IMG/VR virus record: IMGVR_UViG_2778261168_000005
DNA: 40,133 bases
Reading direction: 5' to 3' (one strand)
Source: a virus
Taxonomy: Duplodnaviria > Heunggongvirae > Uroviricota > Caudoviricetes
The notes under the pieces were generated by a model that saw only the letters and a list, made by a program, of their open reading frames with translations, was not told the origin of the DNA and searched no databases. Each line of letters starts with the position of its first letter. The first letter of the stretch is position 1. Both the position numbers and the translations under genes were made by a program. This document shows positions 7,268 through 19,296 of this stretch, in pieces.

Positions 7268-8287
7268 ATGGCTAACGCCTGGCTCAGATTATGGCATGAC
7301 ATGCCAAATGATCCTAAGTGGCGAACAATTTCCAGGGTGTCAGGACAGCCAATCGCAACAGTAATGGCTGTGTATATCCACCTTCTGGTGAGCGCGTCAC
7401 GACATGTCACGACATGTCACGGCGTGTCACTACGCGGTCACATTGATGTCACGACGGAAGATTTAGCAAGTGCGCTTGATGTGACAGAAGAGGTTATTGA
7501 TTCAATTTTACAGGCAATGCAGGGTCGGGTGCTTGATGGAGATTTAATCACTGGATGGGAAAAACGCCAGGTACTGAAAGAGGACAATGGCAACGTTTCG
7601 CAAACCGCGAAATCCCCGGCAGAGCGCAAGAGAGCGCAGCGTGAGAGGGAAAAATTACGAAAACAGAATGATGAGTGTCACGACATGTCACGACGAGTCA
7701 CGACAGATAAAGATACAGATAAAGAATTAAACCCCACACATAACGCGCGCGTGCGCGAGAGTGCTCCGATCGGTGAGTCGAACGGTACGCCATCGCAGAC
7801 AACGGAGCCCGAATATCTGGACGGCATGAGCGAACCCATCGGGAAACTTCCGATGACCGATGGCTGGCATCCGTCTCCGGATTTTCGACGACGGGCTGCT
7901 CTGTGGGGAGTGGCTCTGCCTGAGCCGGAATTTACACCAGCTGAACTTGCAGCCTTCCGGGACTACTGGGCAGCGGAGGGGAAAGTGTTCACGCAGATTC
8001 AGTGGGAGCAGAAATTCGCCCGTCACGTAAATCACGTCAGGGCGCAGGCTAAACCAGTCAGCAAGGGGGCAAACCATGCAGCAGCACCAGGTGGCACCGC
8101 ATCACGGGCAGTTCAGGAAATTCGGGCAGCACGTGAGCAGTGGGAACGTGAAAACGGATTTATCAGCGACGGAAACGGCGTGGAAGCTGTGGGAACTCAT
8201 GGGGGAGGTTTATTCAAACCGCTGGACCCAGAAGAACGGGGCCGCACCTTCGAAGCTCTGGATTGCACAGATTGGCGTGATGACTGA
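7268..8287 (+). CDS. replication initiation protein, O-like (DUF1376/YdaU-type N-terminus)
   Basis: 339 aa from ATG 7268 (SD GAGGTGA); N-terminus MANAWLRLWHDMPNDPKWRTI...; contains two clusters of GTCAC iterons, as lambda ori lies within O. Confidence 0.65.
   Translation: MANAWLRLWHDMPNDPKWRTISRVSGQPIATVMAVYIHLLVSASRHVTTCHGVSLRGHIDVTTEDLASALDVTEEVIDSILQAMQGRVLDGDLITGWEKRQVLKEDNGNVSQTAKSPAERKRAQREREKLRKQNDECHDMSRRVTTDKDTDKELNPTHNARVRESAPIGESNGTPSQTTEPEYLDGMSEPIGKLPMTDGWHPSPDFRRRAALWGVALPEPEFTPAELAAFRDYWAAEGKVFTQIQWEQKFARHVNHVRAQAKPVSKGANHAAAPGGTASRAVQEIRAAREQWERENGFISDGNGVEAVGTHGGGLFKPLDPEERGRTFEALDCTDWRDD
7395..7457. repeat. iteron cluster 1 (six GTCAC-containing repeats at about 10-bp phasing), candidate replication origin
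   Basis: GTCACGACAT GTCACGACAT GTCACGGCGT GTCACTACGC ... GTCAC ... GTCACGAC; GTCAC starts at 7395, 7405, 7415, 7425, 7437, 7448. Confidence 0.6.
7677..7730. repeat. iteron cluster 2 (three GTCACGAC repeats) plus adjacent AT-rich stretch
   Basis: GTCACGACAT GTCACGACGA GTCACGACAG at 7677-7706, then ATAAAGATACAGATAAAGAATTAAA. Confidence 0.55.
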
Positions 8288-8770: not shown

Positions 8771-9166
8771 ATGGCGAAACCTTTTACACCCGAACAGCGG
8801 GAAGAGCTGAAGGCACGAATTATCGGATTGGTACGCAAAAATGGACGCATGACGATGTCGCAACTGGAGAGAGCGACGGGAGCAGGCTGGCATTCGGTCC
8901 GACGCTGCCTTGTGGATGTACTGGCTTGTGGCGATTTATACATGTCCGGTAAATACGGTGTTTTTACGTCAGAGCAGACGTATCGCGAATGGCGTAAGAC
9001 GCCGGAGAAAACAACTGACCAGACGCTGATTCGAAAGTTACCAGACGGAGAGATACGCCGCTACGACAGGAGCCAGAACATAATCTGCCGCGAGTGCCGG
9101 AAGAGTGAGGTTATGCAGCGAGTGCTGGCGTTTTATCAGGGTAATTTTCAGGAGGTGATGGCGTGA
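8771..9166 (+). CDS. hypothetical protein
   Basis: 131-aa ORF, SD GGGAGGG upstream; first gene of the nin-like cluster. Confidence 0.5.
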   Translation: MAKPFTPEQREELKARIIGLVRKNGRMTMSQLERATGAGWHSVRRCLVDVLACGDLYMSGKYGVFTSEQTYREWRKTPEKTTDQTLIRKLPDGEIRRYDRSQNIICRECRKSEVMQRVLAFYQGNFQEVMA

Positions 9167-9462
9167 GGGTGAGGGTTTATATCGCTGGTCCGATGACCGG
9201 GTATAAAAATTTCAACCGTGAGGCGTTCCACAAGGCGGAAGAGGAACTGAAACGGGAAGGGCATACAGTCTTAAACCCGGCAGTACTTCCAGACGGGCTG
9301 ACACAGCCACACTACATGGATATTTGCATGGCAATGATTCGTTGTGTGGATGCGATTTACATGCTGAAAGGCTGGCAGCGGTCAGCAGGCGCTAAGGCAG
9401 AACTGGCGCTGGCGGAGAAACTGGGGCATGCAGTTATTTTCCAGGAGGCAAACAGTGAGTAA
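9163..9462 (+). CDS. DUF4406 / nucleoside 2-deoxyribosyltransferase-like protein
   Basis: 99 aa; N-terminal VYIAGPMTG motif typical of the family; start overlaps previous stop. Confidence 0.55.
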   Translation: MRVRVYIAGPMTGYKNFNREAFHKAEEELKREGHTVLNPAVLPDGLTQPHYMDICMAMIRCVDAIYMLKGWQRSAGAKAELALAEKLGHAVIFQEANSE

Positions 9463-9919
9463 CCAATGGCGACCAGATATTTGTCCTATAACCGGACGTG
9501 CATTTTTCATGTGGATTGAGCATCCGAAATTGGGCAATGTGCCGACGTATGGCGGCCCATTAGACAGTTACACCATTCCAACAAAGGACAGCGATGGTGA
9601 GTTTTCGTGTGAGCGTTACGATCATGATTTCGGTGGCTGGGTAGAAAGCGAATGTCTTGGGTTATATCTGATTGATGATAAAGAACAATGCAGAGTCTAC
9701 GAACTCGAGGAACGCATTAAAGAGCTGGAAGCGCGGGAAGTTCATTTGCCGACTCGCTACGGCCTTCGATATGGACATCCGATAAATGATGATGAGCGCC
9801 ACGTCATGATACCTAAAGAAAATGGCTGCTGGCTTTATCTGGCTGACTTAGAACATGAACTACGTGTTGCTGGCATTCATATCAAAGGAGAGGAGTATGG
9901 AAATAAAACCAGAAGATGA
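9455..9919 (+). CDS. hypothetical protein
   Basis: 154 aa from GTG 9455 with AGGAGG 6 nt upstream; overlaps previous stop. Confidence 0.5.
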   Translation: MSNQWRPDICPITGRAFFMWIEHPKLGNVPTYGGPLDSYTIPTKDSDGEFSCERYDHDFGGWVESECLGLYLIDDKEQCRVYELEERIKELEAREVHLPTRYGLRYGHPINDDERHVMIPKENGCWLYLADLEHELRVAGIHIKGEEYGNKTRR

Positions 9920-10253
9920 GTTAAGTAATATTGTTTTATTTCCGGCAAAAGAGGATGACCCACGTAATCAGGTTAATTTTCTTTATGAGCCATCGGAAAG
10001 ACCATATTGCCATCACGCCTCTGTCCGGGTTGACGAAAAAGAGCGTCAGGTCCGCTGTAAAATCTGCGGTGCAGTTGTGGAGCCGTTTGACTGGATGCTC
10101 TCTGTGGCGAAAAGAGAAACCAGACTGGCAGATGATGTAAGGCTATTGCGCCAGGAGGAACAGGAAAGACGGAAAAATATAGAAAAGTTAATTCAGATTG
10201 AGCGTAACGCGAAAGCGCGGATACGCAGGGCGACAAAATCCAGAACTGAATAA
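9897..10253 (+). CDS. hypothetical protein with Cys/His zinc-ribbon-like motif and charged C-terminus
   Basis: 118 aa from ATG 9897 (SD GGAGAGGAG); CHHASVRVDEKERQVRCKICG motif. Confidence 0.5.
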   Translation: MEIKPEDELSNIVLFPAKEDDPRNQVNFLYEPSERPYCHHASVRVDEKERQVRCKICGAVVEPFDWMLSVAKRETRLADDVRLLRQEEQERRKNIEKLIQIERNAKARIRRATKSRTE

Positions 10254-10303
10254 ATAAATTTAGCACTGTAAATAAAATCAAATCCTTAACTGGAGGTATA
10301 TCT

Positions 10304-10516
10304 ATGTTAAATACACAGAAAACCATTAATGCGGAAAAATATAACGAGTGGGTGAGGAAATTTTCTGAGCAGATTTTTAAAATTACTGGCGACGAGAATG
10401 CGGCAAAAAATGAATTAGAGCCGTGGACACCTGAAGGAGCCGACCCAAATTATTGCTGGTGGGATGTTGATCCAGTTGATGCTGCAAATGAAGCTATGAG
10501 TTATCACAACGATTAA
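10304..10516 (+). CDS. hypothetical protein
   Basis: 70-aa ORF, SD GGAGG 7 nt upstream; AT-rich. Confidence 0.5.
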   Translation: MLNTQKTINAEKYNEWVRKFSEQIFKITGDENAAKNELEPWTPEGADPNYCWWDVDPVDAANEAMSYHND

Positions 10517-10548
10517 TGTCAGGAGGCCGCCCGAAAGGGCGGTAAGAA

Positions 10549-10767
10549 ATGACTACATTATTCAGAAAAGAATATCCGCGAAAGAGTAGAACGACAGAAT
10601 TCCTGTTTCTCATTCTGTTTATCGTATTGATGATACCGATATCCCCGTTAATTCTGGTATGGGGAATAGGGAAAATAATTGAGCCAGTTATTGAATTGTA
10701 TAACGACGTGGTATGGGCGTCGTTCAACGCACTGCACAATAAAATTAATCCGTATAAGGAAAGCTGA
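10549..10767 (+). CDS. hypothetical small membrane protein
   Basis: 72-aa ORF with hydrophobic core (FLFLILFIVLMIPISPLILVWGIG); upstream hairpin GCCGCCC-GAAA-GGGCGG. Confidence 0.4.
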   Translation: MTTLFRKEYPRKSRTTEFLFLILFIVLMIPISPLILVWGIGKIIEPVIELYNDVVWASFNALHNKINPYKES

Positions 10768-10768
10768 T

Positions 10769-11134
10769 ATGGCACTGACGAAAAAACAACGTGCAGAACT
10801 GCGCATGAAGTTTGGTGGTCGCTGCGCTTATTGCGGCTGCGAACTTGGCGAAAAGTGGCATGCAGACCATGTAAAACCGGTCATTCGTTTTGATGGAAAT
10901 ATGCTTCACCAGGAGCGTGACGATATATCCAACATGGTTCCGGCATGCCACCCATGCAATCTGCACAAGCATTGCAGTAGCCTGGAAGATTATCGGCGAA
11001 TTATCAGTGATGGTCGTCGTGAATTCCTTGCATCCGGGAAAGGCAAAGCGCTGGTTCGCATGGGATTGGTTGAAATGAAATCTGACCCGGTTGTGTTCTG
11101 GTTTGAAAAATACCAAGAAGGGGCTACAGCATGA
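10769..11134 (+). CDS. HNH endonuclease
   Basis: 121 aa from ATG 10769 (SD AAGGA); CAYCGC...HADHVKP...ACHPCNLHK motif. Confidence 0.7.
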   Translation: MALTKKQRAELRMKFGGRCAYCGCELGEKWHADHVKPVIRFDGNMLHQERDDISNMVPACHPCNLHKHCSSLEDYRRIISDGRREFLASGKGKALVRMGLVEMKSDPVVFWFEKYQEGATA

Positions 11135-11988
11135 CCACTTTTACCGACAAAGAACTGATTAAAGAAATCAAAGAGCGCATAGGCGGCCTGGACGTTCGAG
11201 ACAATATTGAGCGCCGTGCTTATGAAATTGCATTGGCATCGCTGGAAGCAGAGCCAGTGGCGTGGAAGGTAACCTTCACGCAAATTGACCATGAATATAA
11301 TACGTTCACCGCTATGTATTCTGACAAAGCAGAAGCCGAACGGTGGGTGCGACTGCATAAAGTCGGTGATTTTCGGGCAGAAATAACACCGCTTTACGCA
11401 GCGCCGCCAGCGCTGGTAGTGCCTGATGAAATGGATTTGCTTACCTGCCATCTCGACGGTGTAACTGAAACATATGCTGATGGCTGGAACGCCTGCCGCG
11501 CCGCCATGCTTCAGAGTCAGGGGGAAGGCAACCCTCATGTAACCCCGGCTCGCCTGCCTGGTGGTTTTACCATTGAGGATGCGAAGGAGTTACATGAAGA
11601 CCTGGTTCGCAGCCACATAAGCCAGGCTTTAAGTGGCGAAAAGATGAAAAAGAAAGATCGCGATGCTGATTTGCGCTGGATTCATGGCGTTATAGTTCAG
11701 GCTGCGTGGTTTGTAAAAGCGTCACTGGAGCAGGCCGCGCTATCGGGCACTCCTCCGGTAACTCCGGATAGTTGGATAAGCTGTAGTGAGCGAATGCCGG
11801 AAAAGAACCAGAACGTGCTTATTTCGGTGAATTTCGACAGCTCTCTGGTTGAACCGCTAATATGCTCCGCACGCTATACCGGAAGCACATTCCGGCGAGG
11901 AGATGCAACGATTAAGCCGGGTAATGGTATTGAGCAGGCAACTCACTGGATGCCGCTACCGGAACCACCGCAGGAGGTGAATCAATGA
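11131..11988 (+). CDS. DUF551-domain phage protein
   Basis: 285-aa ORF; C-terminal WISCSERMPEKNQNVLI...THWMPLPEPP matches the DUF551 pattern as I recall it. Confidence 0.55.
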   Translation: MTTFTDKELIKEIKERIGGLDVRDNIERRAYEIALASLEAEPVAWKVTFTQIDHEYNTFTAMYSDKAEAERWVRLHKVGDFRAEITPLYAAPPALVVPDEMDLLTCHLDGVTETYADGWNACRAAMLQSQGEGNPHVTPARLPGGFTIEDAKELHEDLVRSHISQALSGEKMKKKDRDADLRWIHGVIVQAAWFVKASLEQAALSGTPPVTPDSWISCSERMPEKNQNVLISVNFDSSLVEPLICSARYTGSTFRRGDATIKPGNGIEQATHWMPLPEPPQEVNQ

Positions 11989-12068
11989 CCTGGCCTGAGG
12001 CATTCACCACGGCAGGAATTGCGATGGCGGTGGCGCTGGTGGTGTATTCGATTTGCCGCTGGGGTTGA
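11985..12068 (+). CDS. putative 27-aa hydrophobic micro-protein
   Basis: ATG overlaps DUF551 stop (ATGA); AGGAGG 7 nt upstream; MTWPEAFTTAGIAMAVALVVYSICRWG; followed by a terminator. Below ORF-track cutoff. Confidence 0.35.
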   Translation: MTWPEAFTTAGIAMAVALVVYSICRWG

Positions 12069-12155
12069 CGTAATTACTAATCCGGGGCTATATTTCCGGC
12101 GCGCCAGCAAAATCTGGCGTCGGGATTGGCGTCCCGGATGTTTACGGAGCGATAT

Positions 12156-12178
12156 GAGACGCGCCCGCGTCTTTTTTC
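12156..12178 (+). terminator. intrinsic terminator
   Basis: GAGACGCG-CCC-GCGTCT hairpin followed by TTTTTT. Confidence 0.5.
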
Positions 12179-12340
12179 ATATCGTTTGCACAGTCACATT
12201 CGCGATTTATGGCGGGCTGTGTGGGGGAGCCGAAAGGCTCGCCGGTTTCCGTACCCGGTTACGCCAACCCTGCACAGTTCGCCACCAGTTCGATTGGCGT
12301 CGTTGGTGGCGATAATTTCCAAATGTACGGAGTTATCGTT

Positions 12341-12886
12341 ATGACCACTCAAATCTCTGTTGAAACTCTCTCCCCGATCACCCATAACCAGGTCCCTGTT
12401 ATTACCACCGAACTTTTGGCGCAGCTTTATGGCACCGAAATTCTGAATATCCAGGTTAACTTCACCAGAAACAAAGAGCGTTTTGTCGAAGGAAAGCACT
12501 TTTTTAAAGCATCGGGTGAAGAATTAAAAAATTTGCGACTTACTTTAAGTAAGTCACAAAATCCCATCTCTCCCAAAACCCGCTCGCTTATACTCTGGAC
12601 AGAACGCGGAGCAGCCCGCCACGCCAAAATGCTGGAAACCGATCAGGCGTGGGAAGTGTTCGAAAAACTGGAAGACAGCTACTTCAATCAGTACGAGAAA
12701 GAGCGGGCTATGGGCAAAATAAATATCGATTTTCACCTGGCGATCCGTGACGATAAAACCGCTTTCATCCGAAGTTATGCGCCAGGTCAGCTGGTGACGG
12801 TTGAAGAAGCACTGACTTTGCTTAAATCGCGCGGATGGCTGGTAATGCCACGAGATGAACTTGCCGGAAAATTAATGGAGCTTTAA
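12341..12886 (+). CDS. phage antirepressor-like protein (ORF6N/KilA-N-type N-terminal domain)
   Basis: 181 aa from ATG 12341 (SD GGAG); N-terminus ...ELLAQLYGTEILNIQVNFTRNKERFVEGKHFF typical of ORF6N antirepressors; upstream part of the 225-aa ORF lacks a start signal. Confidence 0.65.
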   Translation: MTTQISVETLSPITHNQVPVITTELLAQLYGTEILNIQVNFTRNKERFVEGKHFFKASGEELKNLRLTLSKSQNPISPKTRSLILWTERGAARHAKMLETDQAWEVFEKLEDSYFNQYEKERAMGKINIDFHLAIRDDKTAFIRSYAPGQLVTVEEALTLLKSRGWLVMPRDELAGKLMEL

Positions 12887-12892
12887 CCGGTT

Positions 12893-12918
12893 GAGTTAAC
12901 CCCGATATGGGAATTCCC
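12893..12918. repeat. perfect 26-bp palindrome CCCGATATGGGAATTCCCATATCGGG
   Basis: Exact reverse-complement symmetry centred on GAATTC, 7 nt after the antirepressor stop; no T-run follows. Confidence 0.8.
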
Positions 12919-13101
12919 ATATCGGGTGAACATTGCCACCGGAGATAAAATAATTTGCGGTGAAAGGGAAGTTAAGTAGAATTGCTGCGGGTGCTTGAGG
13001 CTATCTGCCTCAGGCATGAACACCAAAAGGCAGATAGAGAAAAGCCCCAGTTAACATTACGCGTCCTGCAAGACGCTTAACATTAATCTGAGGCCATATC
13101 T

Positions 13102-13161
13102 ATGCGACACATAGAGATTAGCCTCTTACGGACCGAAAGGTCAAGGAGAAGCAGGCTATGA
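13102..13161 (+). CDS. short leader ORF translationally coupled to hok (mok-like)
   Basis: 19-codon ORF whose stop (TGA) overlaps the hok ATG (ATGA); known hok loci have an overlapping mok frame. Confidence 0.35.
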   Translation: MRHIEISLLRTERSRRSRL

Positions 13162-13313
13162 AGCAGCAAAAGGCGATGTTAATCGCCCTGATCGTCATCT
13201 GTTTAACCGTCATAGTGACGGCACTGGTAACGAGGAAAGACCTCTGCGAGGTACGAATCCGAACCGGCCAGACGGAGGTCGCTGTCTTCACAGCTTACGA
13301 ATCTGAGGAGTAA
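13158..13313 (+). CDS. hok: Hok/Gef-family type I toxin
   Basis: 51 aa MKQQKAMLIALIVICLTVIVTALVTRKDLCEVRIRTGQTEVAVFTAYESEE, near-identical in pattern to E. coli HokC/Gef as recalled; strong terminator downstream. Below ORF-track cutoff. Confidence 0.85.
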   Translation: MKQQKAMLIALIVICLTVIVTALVTRKDLCEVRIRTGQTEVAVFTAYESEE

Positions 13314-13382
13314 GAGACCTGGCGGGGGAGAAATCCCTCGCCACCTCTCATGTGTCAGGCATCCTCAAAGCACCCGCACTTA

Positions 13383-13409
13383 ACCCGCTTCGGCGGGTTT
13401 TGTTTTTCA
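13383..13409 (+). terminator. intrinsic terminator of the hok transcript
   Basis: CCCGC-TTCG-GCGGG hairpin followed by TTTTGTTTTT. Confidence 0.7.
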
Positions 13410-13488
13410 TGAATAAGGGATTAATAATTTTAACTGAAGTTATATTACCTTGTGGCCCGATAAGTTAATTAATTATCAATGCGCCTGT

Positions 13489-13623
13489 ATTGTTTGCATT
13501 GTTTGCATTGTTTGCATTGTTTGCATTGTTTGTATTGTTTGTATTGTTTGTATTGTTTGTATTGTTTGTATTGTTTGTATTGTTTGTATTGTTTGTATTG
13601 TTTTTATTATTTGCGTTGTTTGT
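13489..13623. repeat. tandem array of about 15 copies of a 9-bp unit (ATTGTTTGC x4, ATTGTTTGT x9, two degenerate)
   Basis: Direct reading of 13489-13623; the in-frame ORFs across it (CIVCIV... / CLHCLH...) are repeat artefacts without RBS. Confidence 0.9.
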
Positions 13624-13764
13624 GGTTTTATCTTTTTGAGTTTATTTTTTTTGCGTTGCTTAGAAATAAAGATTAATTAGAATCCTCCTGTTTTGAGTAG
13701 CGCGCAGGGACAAGAGGGATGGACCCCTTAAGGGGAGGTGTTTAAAGTTCACGGGATTTTGGTT

Positions 13765-13932
13765 ATGAACGATAAGGAATTAATTGCTGCGCTTTCTGTA
13801 CCTGGTAATTATGAAGTAATAGTTCTTGAGAATGGTGAATTTATCGTAATGCCATTGCCATCCGATGTTATTCTGATCACCAAAGAATCGCATGCGGATT
13901 CGGTCAGTCACTTCAGCATTAAGAAAGACTAG
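13765..13932 (+). CDS. hypothetical protein
   Basis: 55 aa from ATG 13765 (MNDKELIAAL...); GTG 13738 sits directly on the SD-like AAGGGGAGG; weak support. Confidence 0.35.
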   Translation: MNDKELIAALSVPGNYEVIVLENGEFIVMPLPSDVILITKESHADSVSHFSIKKD

Positions 13933-13998
13933 ATTATAATGCTGTAGTTAAAGCCAGCCTGAACAACTGGCGTCTGTCGCACCATTACGAGGATAGTA

Positions 13999-14277
13999 GT
14001 GGTGCATTACAAGAAAATTAACAATTCTGATAATTCAGCCGTCTTTGCCAGCAGGCACGGGCGGTGTTCTCACACATTCAAATATGACTGGTATCAGCAT
14101 GACCCCTGCACAGAAGAACAGGCCGAATGGCTGATTCAGAACTACCGCAGACGTGGGTATGAGTTTAGGAAAGCCCTCAGCCTCGATTATCGTCACTGGA
14201 TAATCTACGTCAGACTCCCTTATTCCGAACGCCCACCGCGTCCGTCCCGCACATTCCAGCAACGCATCTGGAGGTAA
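13999..14277 (+). CDS. hypothetical protein
   Basis: 92-aa ORF from GTG with GAGGA upstream; closely followed by the next gene. Confidence 0.45.
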   Translation: MVHYKKINNSDNSAVFASRHGRCSHTFKYDWYQHDPCTEEQAEWLIQNYRRRGYEFRKALSLDYRHWIIYVRLPYSERPPRPSRTFQQRIWR

Positions 14278-14278
14278 C

Positions 14279-15328
14279 GTGCGGGTATTGCTTCGACCTG
14301 TTCCGGTACCGGAACTTGGGCTGGTGGTGCTAAAGCCGGGCCGTGAATCCATGCAGGTATTTCATAACCCTCGAGTGCTGGTGGAGCCGGAACCGAAAAG
14401 CATGCGTGGTCTGCCGTCCGGAGTTGTTCCTGCCGTTCGCCAGCCGCTGGCGGAAGATAAATCATTACTGCCATTTTTCAGCGACGAACGGGTGATTCGT
14501 GCTGCCGGCGGCGCTGGTGCACTGTCTGACTGGCTCCTGCGTCATGTTAAATCCTGCCAGTGGCCTCATGGTGACTATCACCACAGCGAAACCGTCATAC
14601 ATCGTTACGGCACCGGCGCGATGGTGTTGTGCTGGCACTGCGACAACCAGCTGCGTGACCAGACCTCAGAATCACTTGAGCAACTTGCTCAACAAAACCT
14701 GACAGCATGGATGATTGACGTCATCCGTCACGCAATAAGCGGTGCGCAGGAGCGGGAATTATCGCTGGCTGAATTATCCTGGTGGGCTGTCTGCAATCAG
14801 GTGGCGGACGCACTACCGGAGGTAGTATTACGTCGTTCTCTGGGGTTACGTGCGGAAAAAATTCGCTCGGTGTACCGCGAAAGCGACATCATACCGGGAG
14901 AGCAGACAGCCACCAGCATACTGAAGCAGCGCACAAAAAATATTGTGCTATCGCCTCACGTCCACCAGCAACAGAACTCACCGCAGGAAAAGGCGGTGGT
15001 CAGCATTGCCGTTGATCCGGAGTCTCCGGAATCTTTCATGAAACGACCTAAACGTCGCCGTTGGGTTAACGAGAAATACACGCGCTGGGTGAAGACACAG
15101 CCGTGTGCGTGTTGTGGTAAGCCAGCCGACGATCCCCATCACCTGATTGGTCATGGTCAGGGCGGAATGGGGACAAAATCCCACGATATTTTCACGCTAC
15201 CGCTGTGCCGGGAGCATCACAACGAACTTCATGCGGATCCGCTGGCGTTCGAAGAAAAGCATGGTTCTCAGGTTGATTTAATTTTTCGTTTTCTTGATCA
15301 CGCCTTTGCAACCGGTGTGCTCGGGTAA
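14279..15328 (+). CDS. DUF968-like phage protein with C-terminal Cys/His (HNH-like) motif
   Basis: 349-aa ORF from GTG 14279 (SD GGAGG 5 nt upstream); C-terminus QPCACCGKPADDPHHLIGHGQGG...PLCREHHNELH. Confidence 0.55.
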   Translation: MRVLLRPVPVPELGLVVLKPGRESMQVFHNPRVLVEPEPKSMRGLPSGVVPAVRQPLAEDKSLLPFFSDERVIRAAGGAGALSDWLLRHVKSCQWPHGDYHHSETVIHRYGTGAMVLCWHCDNQLRDQTSESLEQLAQQNLTAWMIDVIRHAISGAQERELSLAELSWWAVCNQVADALPEVVLRRSLGLRAEKIRSVYRESDIIPGEQTATSILKQRTKNIVLSPHVHQQQNSPQEKAVVSIAVDPESPESFMKRPKRRRWVNEKYTRWVKTQPCACCGKPADDPHHLIGHGQGGMGTKSHDIFTLPLCREHHNELHADPLAFEEKHGSQVDLIFRFLDHAFATGVLG

Positions 15329-15340
15329 AAGAGGTTACTG

Positions 15341-15700
15341 ATGCGTATAGAGTTTGTTTTGCCTTACCCGCCGACGGTGAACACCTACTGGCGTCGTCGT
15401 GGCAGCACATATTTTGTATCAAAAGCCGGTGAGCGTTATCGCCGTGATGTGGCGCTTATTGTTCGCCAGCAGCGACTGAAATTAAACCTGTCCGGAAGGC
15501 TGGCGATAAAGATCATTGCAGAGCCGCCGAATAAGCGCCGTCGTGACCTGGACAATATTCTGAAAGCACCAATGGATGCACTGACACATGCGGGGTTGCT
15601 TATCGACGACGAGCAGTTTGATGAAATTAATATTGTGCGCGGTCAGGTCGTTCCTGGTGGTCGGTTGGGGATAAAAATCACAGGGCTGGAGTGCGCATGA
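15341..15700 (+). CDS. rusA: Holliday junction resolvase RusA
   Basis: 119 aa; matches RusA pattern (PPTVNTYWRRRG..., KRRRDLDNILKAPMDALTHAGLLIDDEQ, GGRLGIKITGLE). Confidence 0.85.
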   Translation: MRIEFVLPYPPTVNTYWRRRGSTYFVSKAGERYRRDVALIVRQQRLKLNLSGRLAIKIIAEPPNKRRRDLDNILKAPMDALTHAGLLIDDEQFDEINIVRGQVVPGGRLGIKITGLECA

Positions 15701-16386
15701 ATAACCAGTATTTACAGTTTGTTCGTGAGCAGCTCATTATCGCCACCGCCGATTTGAGTGGGGCAACAAAAGGTCAGCTTGAAGCCTGGCAGGAGAATGC
15801 CATGTTCGATACAGGGCGTTACAGGCGTAAAAAAATCCGGTACCGCGATGAAGTGACTGGAAAAATGATCACGCGGGATAATCCACCAATCCCGGGGAAA
15901 CAATCGCTGGCGAAGGGGACGTCAATTCCTCTGGTAAGTCAGGTTGAGTTTTCGACATCCTCATGGCGACGGGCTGTTCTGTCTCTTGAAGAACCTCATA
16001 AAACCTGGTTGTTGTGGTGTTACAGCGGAAATATTTGCTGGGAGTATCAGGTCACCATAACCCGCTGGGCATGGGAAGAGTTTAAGGCTCATTCTGGCAA
16101 CAGGAAAATTGCAGAGAAGACACGGGAACGCCTGAAAAAATTAATCTGGCTGGCGGCGCAGGCAGTAAAAGCAGAACTTTTTGGCGGGGAAGGTTATGAA
16201 TACCAGGATCTGGCATTACTGGCGGGAGTGACAACTAAAAACTGGTCCAAAACATTTACTGGTCACTGGGTTGCAATGAAACACATTTTCCACCAGCTGG
16301 ATAGTGAGGCTTTATTGTTGGTAATGAGGACGCGTTCGGAACAAAAGGCGGCATTTTCAAAGCAAAGTATTGCAAAAGTAGATTAA
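15697..16386 (+). CDS. putative late-gene antiterminator (Q-like)
   Basis: 229 aa from ATG 15697 overlapping rusA stop (ATGA), SD GGAG; sits between rusA and a strong promoter plus terminator. Assignment by synteny, not recognised sequence. Confidence 0.45.
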   Translation: MNNQYLQFVREQLIIATADLSGATKGQLEAWQENAMFDTGRYRRKKIRYRDEVTGKMITRDNPPIPGKQSLAKGTSIPLVSQVEFSTSSWRRAVLSLEEPHKTWLLWCYSGNICWEYQVTITRWAWEEFKAHSGNRKIAEKTRERLKKLIWLAAQAVKAELFGGEGYEYQDLALLAGVTTKNWSKTFTGHWVAMKHIFHQLDSEALLLVMRTRSEQKAAFSKQSIAKVD

Positions 16387-16398
16387 AAAGCATATATT
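16370..16398 (+). promoter_or_regulatory. strong sigma70-type promoter (TTGCAA-N17-TATATT), late-promoter candidate
   Basis: -35 TTGCAA 16370-16375, 17-nt spacer, -10 TATATT 16393-16398; overlaps the Q-like stop; terminator about 50 nt downstream. Confidence 0.5.
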
Positions 16399-16452
16399 TC
16401 ATGCAAATCTGATATTTTGCCGATTTTGTACGCGATGGCAAAGTAAGCAAAA

Positions 16453-16474
16453 CCCGCCGCCTGGCGGGTTTTTT
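16453..16474 (+). terminator. intrinsic terminator (late-terminator candidate)
   Basis: CCCGCC-GCCT-GGCGGG followed by TTTTTT. Confidence 0.7.
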
Positions 16475-16617
16475 GCGCCCAAAAAGCGGCACAGGACGTT
16501 AAACGCGCTGGTGGTTGCGGATACGAGGCTTTCAGCTTGCTGGCTTTTTCGACAAGAGTTATTGGTATGTCACGTTAACCAGAAAAGGGAAAACACACCA
16601 CTGGTTCGAGGCCATGT

Positions 16618-16929
16618 ATGTATCACAGAAGAGACTTACTTAGTGAATATAAAGAGCTGCGCCAGTATTTTTGTGTGCTAGTGTTATTACCGTACACTGA
16701 TATGTGGACGAATAAGCCAGATCAATTTTACCCGGGTAAGTATTCTTGTGAAAAAACATCCGTAATTTGTGCTGGTAGTCATTCAGTGGACCTGGTAGCG
16801 GATTTCTTCATTGGTTCAGGCTCAGTCATAAAAGCTGTTATGGCGTCAGGGAGTTGTGCGACGGGCGCTGAACAGAAAGCTGAGAGTTTTCAGAATATAA
16901 TGCAGTACATCAGTGATCATTTCGGGTAG
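16618..16929 (+). CDS. hypothetical protein (cargo gene)
   Basis: 103-aa ORF, SD GAGG 7 nt upstream; no recognisable family. Confidence 0.45.
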   Translation: MYHRRDLLSEYKELRQYFCVLVLLPYTDMWTNKPDQFYPGKYSCEKTSVICAGSHSVDLVADFFIGSGSVIKAVMASGSCATGAEQKAESFQNIMQYISDHFG

Positions 16930-17157
16930 AGATAAAATATTAAGTAAGTCACAATTTTGTCGATTAATAATTGTTTTATTTAAGTGCGATTTGTTAAAAA
17001 GTTACAGCATGGTGAATCCCCCTCAGCGGCGGGGCATAATGACCGTCAGGTTGGGTTGCATTAGCGATAGTAGCAAGCAGCGGATTCTGTCTGGTCATTG
17101 CAGAATTCACCGGGAGGCACCCGGCACTATGACAATGATGGTAGTAAATGCGTATAC

Positions 17158-17185
17158 AAGCCCCTCATCCTGAGGGGCTTTTTTA
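17158..17185 (+). terminator. intrinsic terminator
   Basis: GCCCCTCA-TCC-TGAGGGGC followed by TTTTTT. Confidence 0.6.
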
Positions 17186-17230
17186 TTATGTGTGGTGAGT
17201 CTGAGGGGGGATGAATCAACTCATATGCTG

Positions 17231-17560
17231 TCATTTATATAATCCATACGGACATATTGTCAGCATACACTGGTTGTTGGGGCATATACTTTTTGTTTTT
17301 ACTGATTTTCCCGGGCAATCTTTGTTGTTTTTGATGAGGTACCAGAATCTCTTGTTAAATGGAGTTACGTTGTAAATTGTTAATGGAATTTGTTTATTAT
17401 TCATGATGATACCGGAATTAATCGGTGTGAAAGTGCTTCCCGGTGGCAGGAATACATCTGACTGATACCAGAGTATCAATTTTATTTTATTCCATACTGT
17501 AGAAAACGTTATTCCACTTGATGAGCATATAACAGTGTCAATCACTATCCATTCCATCAT
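17231..17560 (-). CDS. hypothetical protein in AT-rich island
   Basis: 109-aa ORF, SD GAAGG about 9 nt upstream; local GC clearly lower than flanks (by eye); candidate -10 TATACT upstream. Confidence 0.4.
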   Translation of the reverse strand: MMEWIVIDTVICSSSGITFSTVWNKIKLILWYQSDVFLPPGSTFTPINSGIIMNNKQIPLTIYNVTPFNKRFWYLIKNNKDCPGKSVKTKSICPNNQCMLTICPYGLYK

Positions 17561-17782
17561 TTTCAGCCTTCTGGATGCATATTACCGTTTAAAAAGTATA
17601 GCTCGTCATGGCTGTAACTCATTGAAAAAGATCATTTTATTTATCTTTTGGTGGAATCCCTTTGGTGTGACGCCTTCGGTATGAGACGATAATAAGTCAG
17701 AACGCCTGGCACGAGCCGTAAAGGATATTAGGGGGGGGCTGAACTGACACAGTGCACAGGGAAAGAGCGCACAACCCCAGGA

Positions 17783-18001
17783 GTGCTTGTGGAGAGTTAC
17801 GGTGGAGATTTTGTATTTCCTGGCAGGGTCGGTGATGCATCATTCTGGTGTTGTAAACGCGTTGCAGAGGCGTTCCTCAGGGCGAAGGTGATTAAGAGTT
17901 GGTTTAGTGGGAAATCACAGTATCCATACAGGACGGAATACTTCGTGAGGTGCTCGACGCCCAGGTTTTATAACAATCAAAAAATTCATCTCTTGCATTG
18001 A
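17783..18001 (+). CDS. hypothetical protein
   Basis: 72-aa ORF, no clear SD; followed by a T8 run at about 18016-18023. Confidence 0.3.
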   Translation: MLVESYGGDFVFPGRVGDASFWCCKRVAEAFLRAKVIKSWFSGKSQYPYRTEYFVRCSTPRFYNNQKIHLLH

Positions 18002-18201
18002 CCAACCTTCTTCATGGCGGTTTTTTTTGGGGAATTGATTGAATTGCATACTGAATAATCATTGCATCGTTAAAATTATAACTAATTCCGAATATGCTGT
18101 GCTTGCTTATTGTTAGCTTGCTTACATTTCTGTATTTTGCTGCACCGCAGGTTTCCCCTGTAACGACGATTGTATGATTAATCATTTAAACTTTGTCATT
18201 T

Positions 18202-18232
18202 GCCAGCCAGTCTCTGGTGGCTGGCTTTTTTT
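18202..18232 (+). terminator. intrinsic terminator
   Basis: GCCAGCCA ... TGGCTGGC 8-bp stem followed by TTTTTTT. Confidence 0.55.
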
Positions 18233-18285
18233 GCAAGGTGTTCCAGTAATTCTGTCGTCAGGCTGGATTCCCACAGAACAAAAAA

Positions 18286-18367
18286 CCGTCACTAACTCAT
18301 CGGGTAAGAGTGCATAACACGTATTGTTGTTTTGTGGTGCGGGGTTCGAGTCCACGGTGACGGTCCA
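18286..18367 (+). tRNA. tRNA-like element, probably a degenerate tRNA pseudogene
   Basis: Hand-folded: 7/7 acceptor stem (CCGTCAC / GTGACGG), U8, 4-bp D-stem with A14, G18G19, A21, T-arm CGGGG-TTCGAGT-CCACG, then T and CCA; but 27 nt lie between D- and T-arms (22 expected) and no canonical anticodon loop can be drawn. Terminator follows. Confidence 0.35.
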
Positions 18368-18394
18368 TTTGTAACGGTAAATATACTTTTAACA

Positions 18395-18416
18395 GGCTCG
18401 CTTCGGCGAGCTTTTT
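18395..18416 (+). terminator. intrinsic terminator after the tRNA-like element
   Basis: GCTCGC-TTCG-GCGAGC followed by TTTTT. Confidence 0.6.
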
Positions 18417-18862
18417 GTATGAGTTCAACCCGGTTTATATTGGCGAAAAAAGGGCGCGGCTGTCGGATTAAAGCCGCGGGACAAAGTCCATGAAGAAGAA
18501 TAAGCATCTCTCTCCTCCAGAGAGACGTATTTATATTACTAAGCATTAAAAATGGTTTAAATCCTCAGATTAACCTTAATTTCAGGTAAGTCTAATTTCA
18601 TTTCTTTGCGCCACGTCCGGCGCACATCAAAAACCACAGAGCCTTTCAGGGGTGAGCTTACGGCATGGTCAGTGTGACTTTTTCTTTGGGCTGGCCCCCC
18701 GGGCGGAGGCTCATCCACCAAAAGGAAACGTCACTGATGTCGGTGCTGGCAGATGGTGTGCTGGTGGCAATGGCGCTGGTCGTCCTCCTGCCTTTACTGC
18801 GCAAATCTGAATAGCACCACGCAAAAGGCATCTGCGGGTGCCTTTGACGGGGTGTTTTTTAC

Positions 18863-18884
18863 GGGCCGCTGGTGGCCCTTTTTT
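18863..18884 (+). terminator. intrinsic terminator upstream of the lysis genes
   Basis: GGGCC-GCTGGT-GGCCC followed by TTTTTT; a second hairpin (AAGGCA...TGCCTT) lies at 18825-18844. Confidence 0.5.
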
Positions 18885-18903
18885 ATTTACAGGAGAATAA
18901 AGT

Positions 18904-19296
18904 ATGTCTGAACCCTTATCCGGTTCCGGCACGGCTGTGGCGCTCGGCGGGGCGACGGTATTCGGGCTGTTTACCGGAACGGATTTCGGGATTGTGTTTG
19001 GTGCATTCGCAGGGGCGTTATTTGTGGCAACGATGCCGCAGGCGCTTTCAGCCTGGCGTGTGGCGGCGCATTTTCTGGTGTCGTTCATTATCGGCGTACT
19101 GGGCGCAGAGGTTCTGGCATCCTGGCTGGTAAAGCATACAGAGTTTGACGGTGCACCTGTCGACGCATTGTGTGCAGTACTGGTGTCAGTGGTGTCGGTG
19201 AAGATTCTCTCGTTCATCCACCAGCAGGATATTGCATCGCTGGTGTCCGGCCTGTTCTCCCGCCTGCGGGGTGGAGGAGGCGGCAATGTTAAGTAA
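18904..19296 (+). CDS. putative holin (membrane protein)
   Basis: 130-aa ORF, SD AGGAG; Gly/Ala-rich hydrophobic segments; first gene of the lysis cluster, before the muramidase. Confidence 0.45.
   Translation: MSEPLSGSGTAVALGGATVFGLFTGTDFGIVFGAFAGALFVATMPQALSAWRVAAHFLVSFIIGVLGAEVLASWLVKHTEFDGAPVDALCAVLVSVVSVKILSFIHQQDIASLVSGLFSRLRGGGGGNVK

Follow-up and report, generated by a model that had tools for sequence, protein, structure and literature searches.

What does a near-perfect array of fifteen 9-bp repeats do between a toxin gene and the next open reading frames of a prophage? The array (13489-13623, in register from 13489) lies in a stretch of 40,133 nt, here called the window, in the nin-like part of a lambdoid, Qin-like prophage of E. 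coli. The gene order from 5′ to 3′ is DUF551, an ORF6N anti-repressor, sok and hokD, the hok terminator, the AT-rich module that holds the array, a 55-aa ORF, a 92-aa ORF, DUF968/HNH, RusA, and the antiterminator Q. The initial annotation had proposed a slipped-strand contingency locus, an array of binding sites, or a recombination hot spot.

Upstream of the array, the plus strand carries the sok/hok 5′ regulatory region (12989-13160; Rfam sok RF01794, 108 bits) and the 51-aa toxin gene (13158-13313; Pfam HOK_GEF 1.2e-23), which is named hokD in the RefSeq relatives. The hok intrinsic terminator (13382-13407, plus strand, i.e. a hairpin at 13382-13399 and a T-run) was identified with a terminator scan and forms the left edge of the variable module. 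The hok 3′ end and the terminator are also covered by an isrK match below the threshold (13322-13403; 27 bits, E 7e-4), which probably reflects terminator similarity only. Downstream, also on the plus strand, follow the 55-aa ORF (13765-13932; phrog_34610, unknown function), which occupies the slot of rem in K-12 Qin, the 92-aa ORF (13999-14277), DUF968/HNH (14279-15328), RusA (15341-15700), and Q (15691-16386). The order hokD-rem-92 aa-ydfU of E. coli K-12 Qin matches that of the window, and its hokD-rem spacer is short and repeat-free.

Two further groups of RNA motifs were identified in the surroundings. Matches to the Rfam families c4-a1b1, isrK, and C4 antisense RNA (12088-12289 and 12209-12886) lie directly 5′ of the ORF6N anti-repressor gene and overlap its start; by similarity, these motifs together with ORF6N represent a putative P1-type c4/ant or IsrK-type module within the nin region. 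An STnc100 sRNA match (110 bits, 16978-17190) ends at a strong terminator (17158-17180) just 3′ of Q, and is probably a short transcript from the late promoter.

The array itself is by far the strongest repeat of the 40-kb window. Tandem Repeats Finder reports it at 13486-13623 with a period of 9, 15.3 copies, 93% matches, and a score of 220. Three blocks can be distinguished. The first (13489-13524) comprises four copies of ATTGTTTGC, a unit that is expanded in the window and single in the nearest relatives. The second (13525-13596) comprises eight copies of ATTGTTTGT, all of them perfect, and the third (13597-13623) consists of the degenerate units ATTGTTTTT, ATTATTTGC, and GTTGTTTGT, the last of which is the type expanded in one of the relatives (L013). 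A fainter 9-bp periodicity continues past the array up to about 13655. The initial annotation had counted the first unit four times, in agreement with our result, and the main unit nine times, one more than the eight exact copies. It had also placed the array immediately downstream of the hok terminator; it is indeed downstream, but begins about 80 nt past the T-run.

The best period-9 run has a score of 103, while the maxima of the simulations were 11 (Markov model of the whole window) and 19 (2000 runs with the local AT-rich composition), and a chance origin of the array is thus excluded. The exact 9-mer ATTGTTTGT is found eight times in the window (expected: 0.6), all eight within the array and none elsewhere. 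The plus strand of the array contains 64% T, 22% G, 11% A, and 4% C. The GC content of the segment is 0.24-0.29, compared with about 0.5 in the surroundings, and the strong excess of T and G characterizes the whole AT-rich non-coding module (about 13411-13655; T 55%, G 20%, A 18%, C 7%). The module ends with a decayed T-rich tail (13624-13655) that contains a T5 (13633-13637) and a T8 (13645-13652) tract. Tandem Repeats Finder, the simulations, and the GC profile thus agree with the earlier description of about 15 tandem 9-bp repeats in an AT-rich segment. Other short tandem repeats in the window (7396-7430, 7676-7725, and 2174-2260) include the 10-bp GTCACGACAT in 3.5 and 3 copies, a 12-bp repeat in 1.9 copies, and a 21-bp repeat in 3.9 copies; these could be operator, iteron-like, or coding repeats.

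A repeat unit of 9 bp preserves the reading frame, and a frame of 65 codons that starts with the ATG at 13479 is open across the array. Its product would be small, hydrophobic, and repetitive, M-R-L-(YCL)n. However, the ATG is not preceded by a Shine-Dalgarno sequence, and the start codon is missing in two subfamilies of the relatives. One relative (L001) has a stop at codon 4, and shifts in poly-T tracts lead to three different C-termini among the relatives. T-rich DNA is, moreover, free of stop codons by composition. The coding reading was therefore rejected, and the chance that such a peptide is made appears negligible. The earlier view that no convincing start or ribosome binding site is present was confirmed, as was that of a near-perfect, non-coding microsatellite or minisatellite.

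The copy number across related prophages, the comparison suggested in the initial annotation, turned out to be highly variable. Loci were collected from four sources, i.e. 14 loci from RefSeq, loci from IMG/VR and metagenomes that were retrieved with a pattern of the flanks, loci from a scan with the downstream leader sequence, and ten further assemblies found via the 55-aa protein. In all, about 40 homologous modules were compared. Between 2.9 and 13.3 units are perfectly periodic in the homologous modules, which stem from E. coli genomes of RefSeq, from IMG/VR, from metagenomes, and from other NCBI assemblies. The allele of the window, with 13.3 periodic units or 15 when the degenerate ones are counted, is the longest seen. 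For 23 of the 25 locus pairs with three or fewer differences over 610 nt of flanks, the copy numbers differ. Even two loci without a single flank difference (L012 and L014) have 13.3 and 5.3 units, respectively, so that identical flanks can be accompanied by a gap of up to 8 units. The range of about 3 to 15 units, with differences even between loci with identical flanks, contradicts a fixed copy number among natural relatives and bears out the proposed slippage-prone nature of the array.

The arrays change in length by entire units and as homogeneous blocks. The unit variant with TGC is single in L002 and L201 and has four copies in the window. The 5′ block varies independently of the 3′ block (L207 and L202 in comparison with L201). 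Other 9-bp variants have expanded in other lineages, i.e. GTTGTTTGT in L013 and TTGTATTTG, with three to six copies, in L043, L049, L052, L055, and L056. One subfamily (L004, L048, L051, L053, L054, and L203) has retained only a decayed T/G tract, which is still 9-periodic. The pattern across the lineages is that of the cycle of birth, expansion, and decay that would be predicted for a minisatellite driven by slippage. In all three subfamilies of the module, a T/G-rich tract with a 9-bp period is present at one shared position despite diverged flanks, which could point to constraint rather than to shared descent.

Variable number tandem repeats (VNTRs) are a known kind of bacterial locus; those used in multilocus VNTR analysis (MLVA), including the typing of E. 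coli, are intergenic minisatellites with units of 6-18 bp. Several features of the array are typical of this class, i.e. the short units are arranged head to tail, they are polymorphic between near-identical loci, including loci with identical flanks, variant units mark stepwise expansion, and decayed lineages exist. Its repeat is as hypermutable as that of a contingency locus is expected to be. In contrast to the VNTR loci used for typing, the array is present in well under 1% of the complete E. coli genomes and belongs to a single mosaic module of prophages with hokD. The hokD gene of the window is found in 4707 of the 5426 complete E. coli genomes, while the array module is found, at the level of megablast, in only about 20 of the 5426. 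None of the complete RefSeq E. coli genomes covers more than 62% of the region from 9000 to 19000 of the window.

The array module was not found in the plasmid set, and the flank pattern was absent from the GTDB species representatives. GenBank phage records contain only the leader and the −10 part, without the array module. Among the IMG/VR matches to three repeat units, only L023 and L030 are homologous to the array module; the others are mostly giant-virus contigs or other AT-rich contigs without homology. The three-unit 27-mer TATTGTTTGTATTGTTTGTATTGTTTG is found identically in 24 unrelated viral contigs of IMG/VR (within L016-L041), many or most of them of giant viruses, as well as in 22 bacterial species of unrelated phyla among the GTDB genomes (L179-L200). 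These occurrences are apparently independent expansions, and some of the distant copies are probably located within coding repeats. Judging from their distribution, the repeat sequence expands readily in AT-rich DNA without a shared context. In the literature searched, the repeat was not found as an 18-mer, the 9-mers were found only in unrelated primer or sequence contexts, and the leader sequence had no match. A paper on promoters identified by gSELEX lists only the relB/ydfV spacer near hokD.

Fifteen identical or near-identical 9-mers in head-to-tail orientation could also form an iteron-like array of binding sites for a specific phage or host protein. Iterons have units of 17-22 bp in helical phase, a fixed number, and a sequence that is conserved together with the cognate protein. 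The array resembles the iterons and operator arrays of phage and plasmid replicons in that multiple direct repeats are found in AT-rich non-coding DNA of a mobile element. In contrast, its unit has 9 bp, is out of helical phase, and varies in number as well as in sequence. Specifically, the copy number is free between about 3 and 15, the unit differs between subfamilies (ATTGTTTGT, GTTGTTTGT, or TTGTATTTG), and the period deviates from the about 10.5 or 21 bp of helical phasing, with a twist of 312 degrees per unit and a shift of about −48 degrees per site in a rough wedge model. The units have no dyad symmetry, the 40-kb window contains no other copy, and the module is missing from most relatives with the same genes and is decayed or absent in many. 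The earlier proposal of a binding-site array could thus not be upheld, and we regard it as highly unlikely.

A point in favour of binding sites is that CGATAAGTT and AGTTAATTAA, to the left of the array at 13458-13472, resemble an H-NS nucleation motif (TCGATAAATT) and an older consensus of the ArcA box (WGTTAATTAW), respectively. The same stretch is the near-palindrome CGATAAGTTAATTAATTATCG in some relatives. Intrinsic curvature of the array was rejected: the wedge model, which is a rough test, resulted in a ratio of end-to-end distance to contour length of 0.97, compared with 0.25 for a control with phased A-tracts and 0.92 for shuffled versions of the array. Neither the DNA nor the RNA form of the array has hairpin potential, and relevant inverted repeats or cruciforms were not found in it.

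The position of the array directly after a toxin-antitoxin system raises the question of whether it is functionally linked to hok. The hok terminator precedes all 28 of the 28 complete array modules. This is the case because the spacer is one of the mosaic units of prophages that carry hok: the array module is one of at least eight alternatives that can follow the hok terminator and precede a promoter-like site. The terminator sequence is common to all module types, and divergence starts directly after it. The array module is absent from K-12 Qin, from loci of the L015 type, and from Rac-SA53. Tandem repeats are confined to the array module type (period scores of 111 and 41, compared with at most 7 in the others), and the repeat-free types have fixed spacer lengths of 77, 109, or 138 nt. 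In addition, the array lies outside the hok mRNA, the sok RNA, and their promoters, and is thus not a part of the hok/sok system. A special link between array and hok was therefore not substantiated by the comparison, and the adjacency is positional.

The mosaic structure is also relevant for the proposed role in recombination, in which a long identical T/G-rich tract would favour RecA-mediated exchange between related prophages. In one locus (L013), the left side has the haplotype of one group and the right side that of the other, a second locus (L042) is mixed, and three different genes follow the array module among the relatives. However, the shared boundaries of the modules are located at the hok terminator and at the −10/leader region, not within the array. 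Exchange would be possible anywhere in the shared 300 bp, and no Chi sequence is present. A hot spot or mosaic joint at the array is therefore very unlikely.

On the right side of the array module, the homology with K-12 Qin and other relatives picks up again at the sequence TAGAAT, followed by the leader. This sequence is the −10 element of a putative sigma-70 promoter on the plus strand (13656-13683), with a −35 element TTGCTT at 13656-13661, a spacer of 16 nt, the −10 element at 13678-13683, and a predicted start near 13690. The promoter-like TTGCTT-N16-TAGAAT sits 55 bp 3′ of the array, and the T-rich tail lies directly 5′ of the −35 element. The conserved leader on the plus strand (13696-13735) has the form AGTAGCGCGCAGGGA.AAGA.GGATGG; a G/C hairpin comes next (13724-13735), and its loop is free to vary. 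A boxA/boxB (nut-like) interpretation of the leader hairpin was dropped for this reason. The leader had no match in Rfam and is thermodynamically not unusual.

Retrieval of loci by the leader alone avoided the bias of the initial flank pattern. In the 151 loci retrieved, TAGAAT is invariant and its distance from the leader is fixed, while the sequence on either side of TAGAAT varies. These loci have 31 different 45-mers upstream and belong to at least eight unrelated module types. Rac-SA53 contributes a further type of upstream module. Seven of the eight tabulated −35 variants are of the TTG type with a spacing of 16 or 18 nt (probability by chance, 0.05 per type), and the only exception is TTAACT at 18 nt. 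These values represent good comparative evidence for a sigma-70 promoter at 13656-13683. The site of the window scores below the threshold of a consensus scanner, and TTGCTT, with three of six matches, is the weakest −35 element among the module types. The combination of TTGnnn-N16/18-TAGAAT, an invariant 27-nt leader, and a G/C hairpin precedes rem-type or 55-aa genes in the window, at 1800-1860 of L057, and at 150 other loci. It appears to be undescribed, being absent from Rfam and from the literature searched.

With a start near 13690, the array would extend from about −68 to −202, and the strong hok terminator lies upstream of it. It would thus be transcribed only by read-through, which argues against a role at the level of RNA. 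Such a role could be that of a U/G-rich stretch in antiterminated read-through transcripts or, on the minus strand, that of an A/C-rich, G-free pad for Rho or Hfq. The extreme strand composition (T 64% and C 4% on the plus strand) and the unstructured single strand are compatible with this proposal, and each unit contains GU↓AUU, which fits the RN↓WUU preference of RNase E. However, no minus-strand promoter was found nearby, copy number and unit are unconstrained, and no family was found with Rfam 15 over 13411-13760 (E up to 10), one meaningless 14-bit match to a fungal sRNA aside. An RNA element is accordingly considered highly improbable.

A different function would be that the array acts on the adjoining promoter, i.e. 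that the number of units and the poly-T tracts tune the promoter like a rheostat or a contingency locus via length, helical register, or H-NS-type occupancy of the AT-rich upstream DNA. In that case, subpopulations of lysogens would differ in the expression of the genes from the rem slot through Q. The array and the poly-T tracts (about −58 to −39) lie upstream of a promoter-like site that is comparatively well supported, and this site has the poorest −35 element, so that upstream DNA could matter. The array is hypermutable, and no strong intrinsic terminator was found in the scan between the promoter-like site and Q (13690-15691). Activity of the promoter in lysogens would therefore require that the expression of Q is limited in some other way. 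The poly-T tracts at 13633-13637 and 13645-13652 are a second slippage-prone feature, located at the position of an UP element, and they vary among the relatives from T5 to T9 (distal) and from T3 to T9 (proximal).

Two precedents for such tuning have been described. In the promoter regions of hmw1A and hmw2A of H. influenzae, 7-bp repeats are present in 9-28 copies, and their number was shown to be inversely correlated with the mRNA level (PMC2424069). The array is similar in that a unit of medium size is present in many copies (here about 3-15) upstream of a transcription unit and varies between isolates. In contrast to the hmw repeats, which are located in a mapped promoter/leader region, it lies upstream of a putative −35 element. 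In H. pylori, a slippage-prone T-tract directly adjoins the −35 element of sabA, and its length acts on the contacts of the RNA polymerase alpha subunit (PMC4081817). The T5 and T8 tracts of the window (13633-13652) are likewise slippage-prone T-rich DNA just 5′ of the −35 element, whereas the main repeat is a 9-bp unit rather than a mononucleotide tract and is located at least 30 bp further upstream.

Several results argue against a tuning function of the array. It is located neither between the −35 and −10 elements nor in the 5′ UTR or in a genuine ORF, and no helical register is preferred among the copy numbers. The leader is also driven by other module types that have no repeat, and repeat-free modules in front of the same promoter-like site indicate that the promoter does not require the array. 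Furthermore, the promoter is itself a prediction, and the array is predicted to be straight (ratio of 0.97). Taken together, tuning of the promoter by the array seems unlikely, although the position of the array is compatible with it. A more far-reaching version, in which array and poly-T tracts would form a slippage rheostat on an undescribed conserved promoter and leader, the alleles would set the basal levels of the nin region and of Q, and spontaneous induction or the leakage of late genes would vary heritably among clonal lysogens, is a decidedly doubtful proposal.

The array, which follows the hok terminator and precedes the promoter-like site, is thus a real, polymorphic, and non-coding tandem repeat. 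We think that it is probably a near-neutral, hypermutable VNTR in an AT-rich spacer of E. coli prophages that are lambdoid and Qin-like and carry hokD. It would gain and lose entire 9-bp units by slippage during replication, and perhaps also by unequal exchange, a mechanism suggested by the pattern of polymorphism. The same pattern is suggestive of selective near-neutrality, and any effect on the putative promoter would be quantitative and small. The allele of the window with its 15 units would simply be the longest one seen of a locus with a fast turnover. While VNTRs are a known kind of element, this locus is described in none of the literature searched.

As a near-neutral VNTR, the array is a clean example of a fast-evolving prophage minisatellite. 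It could be used as a marker to type, at high resolution, the few E. coli lineages in which it is present, and short-read assemblies may misassemble the spacer in which it resides. The array would matter more if its copy number tuned the adjoining promoter-like element; very few repeat-based expression switches have been documented in E. coli, and we know of none upstream of a lambdoid Q. The more general lead is the conserved promoter-like TAGAAT with its leader, which is present in 151 loci behind at least eight upstream modules.
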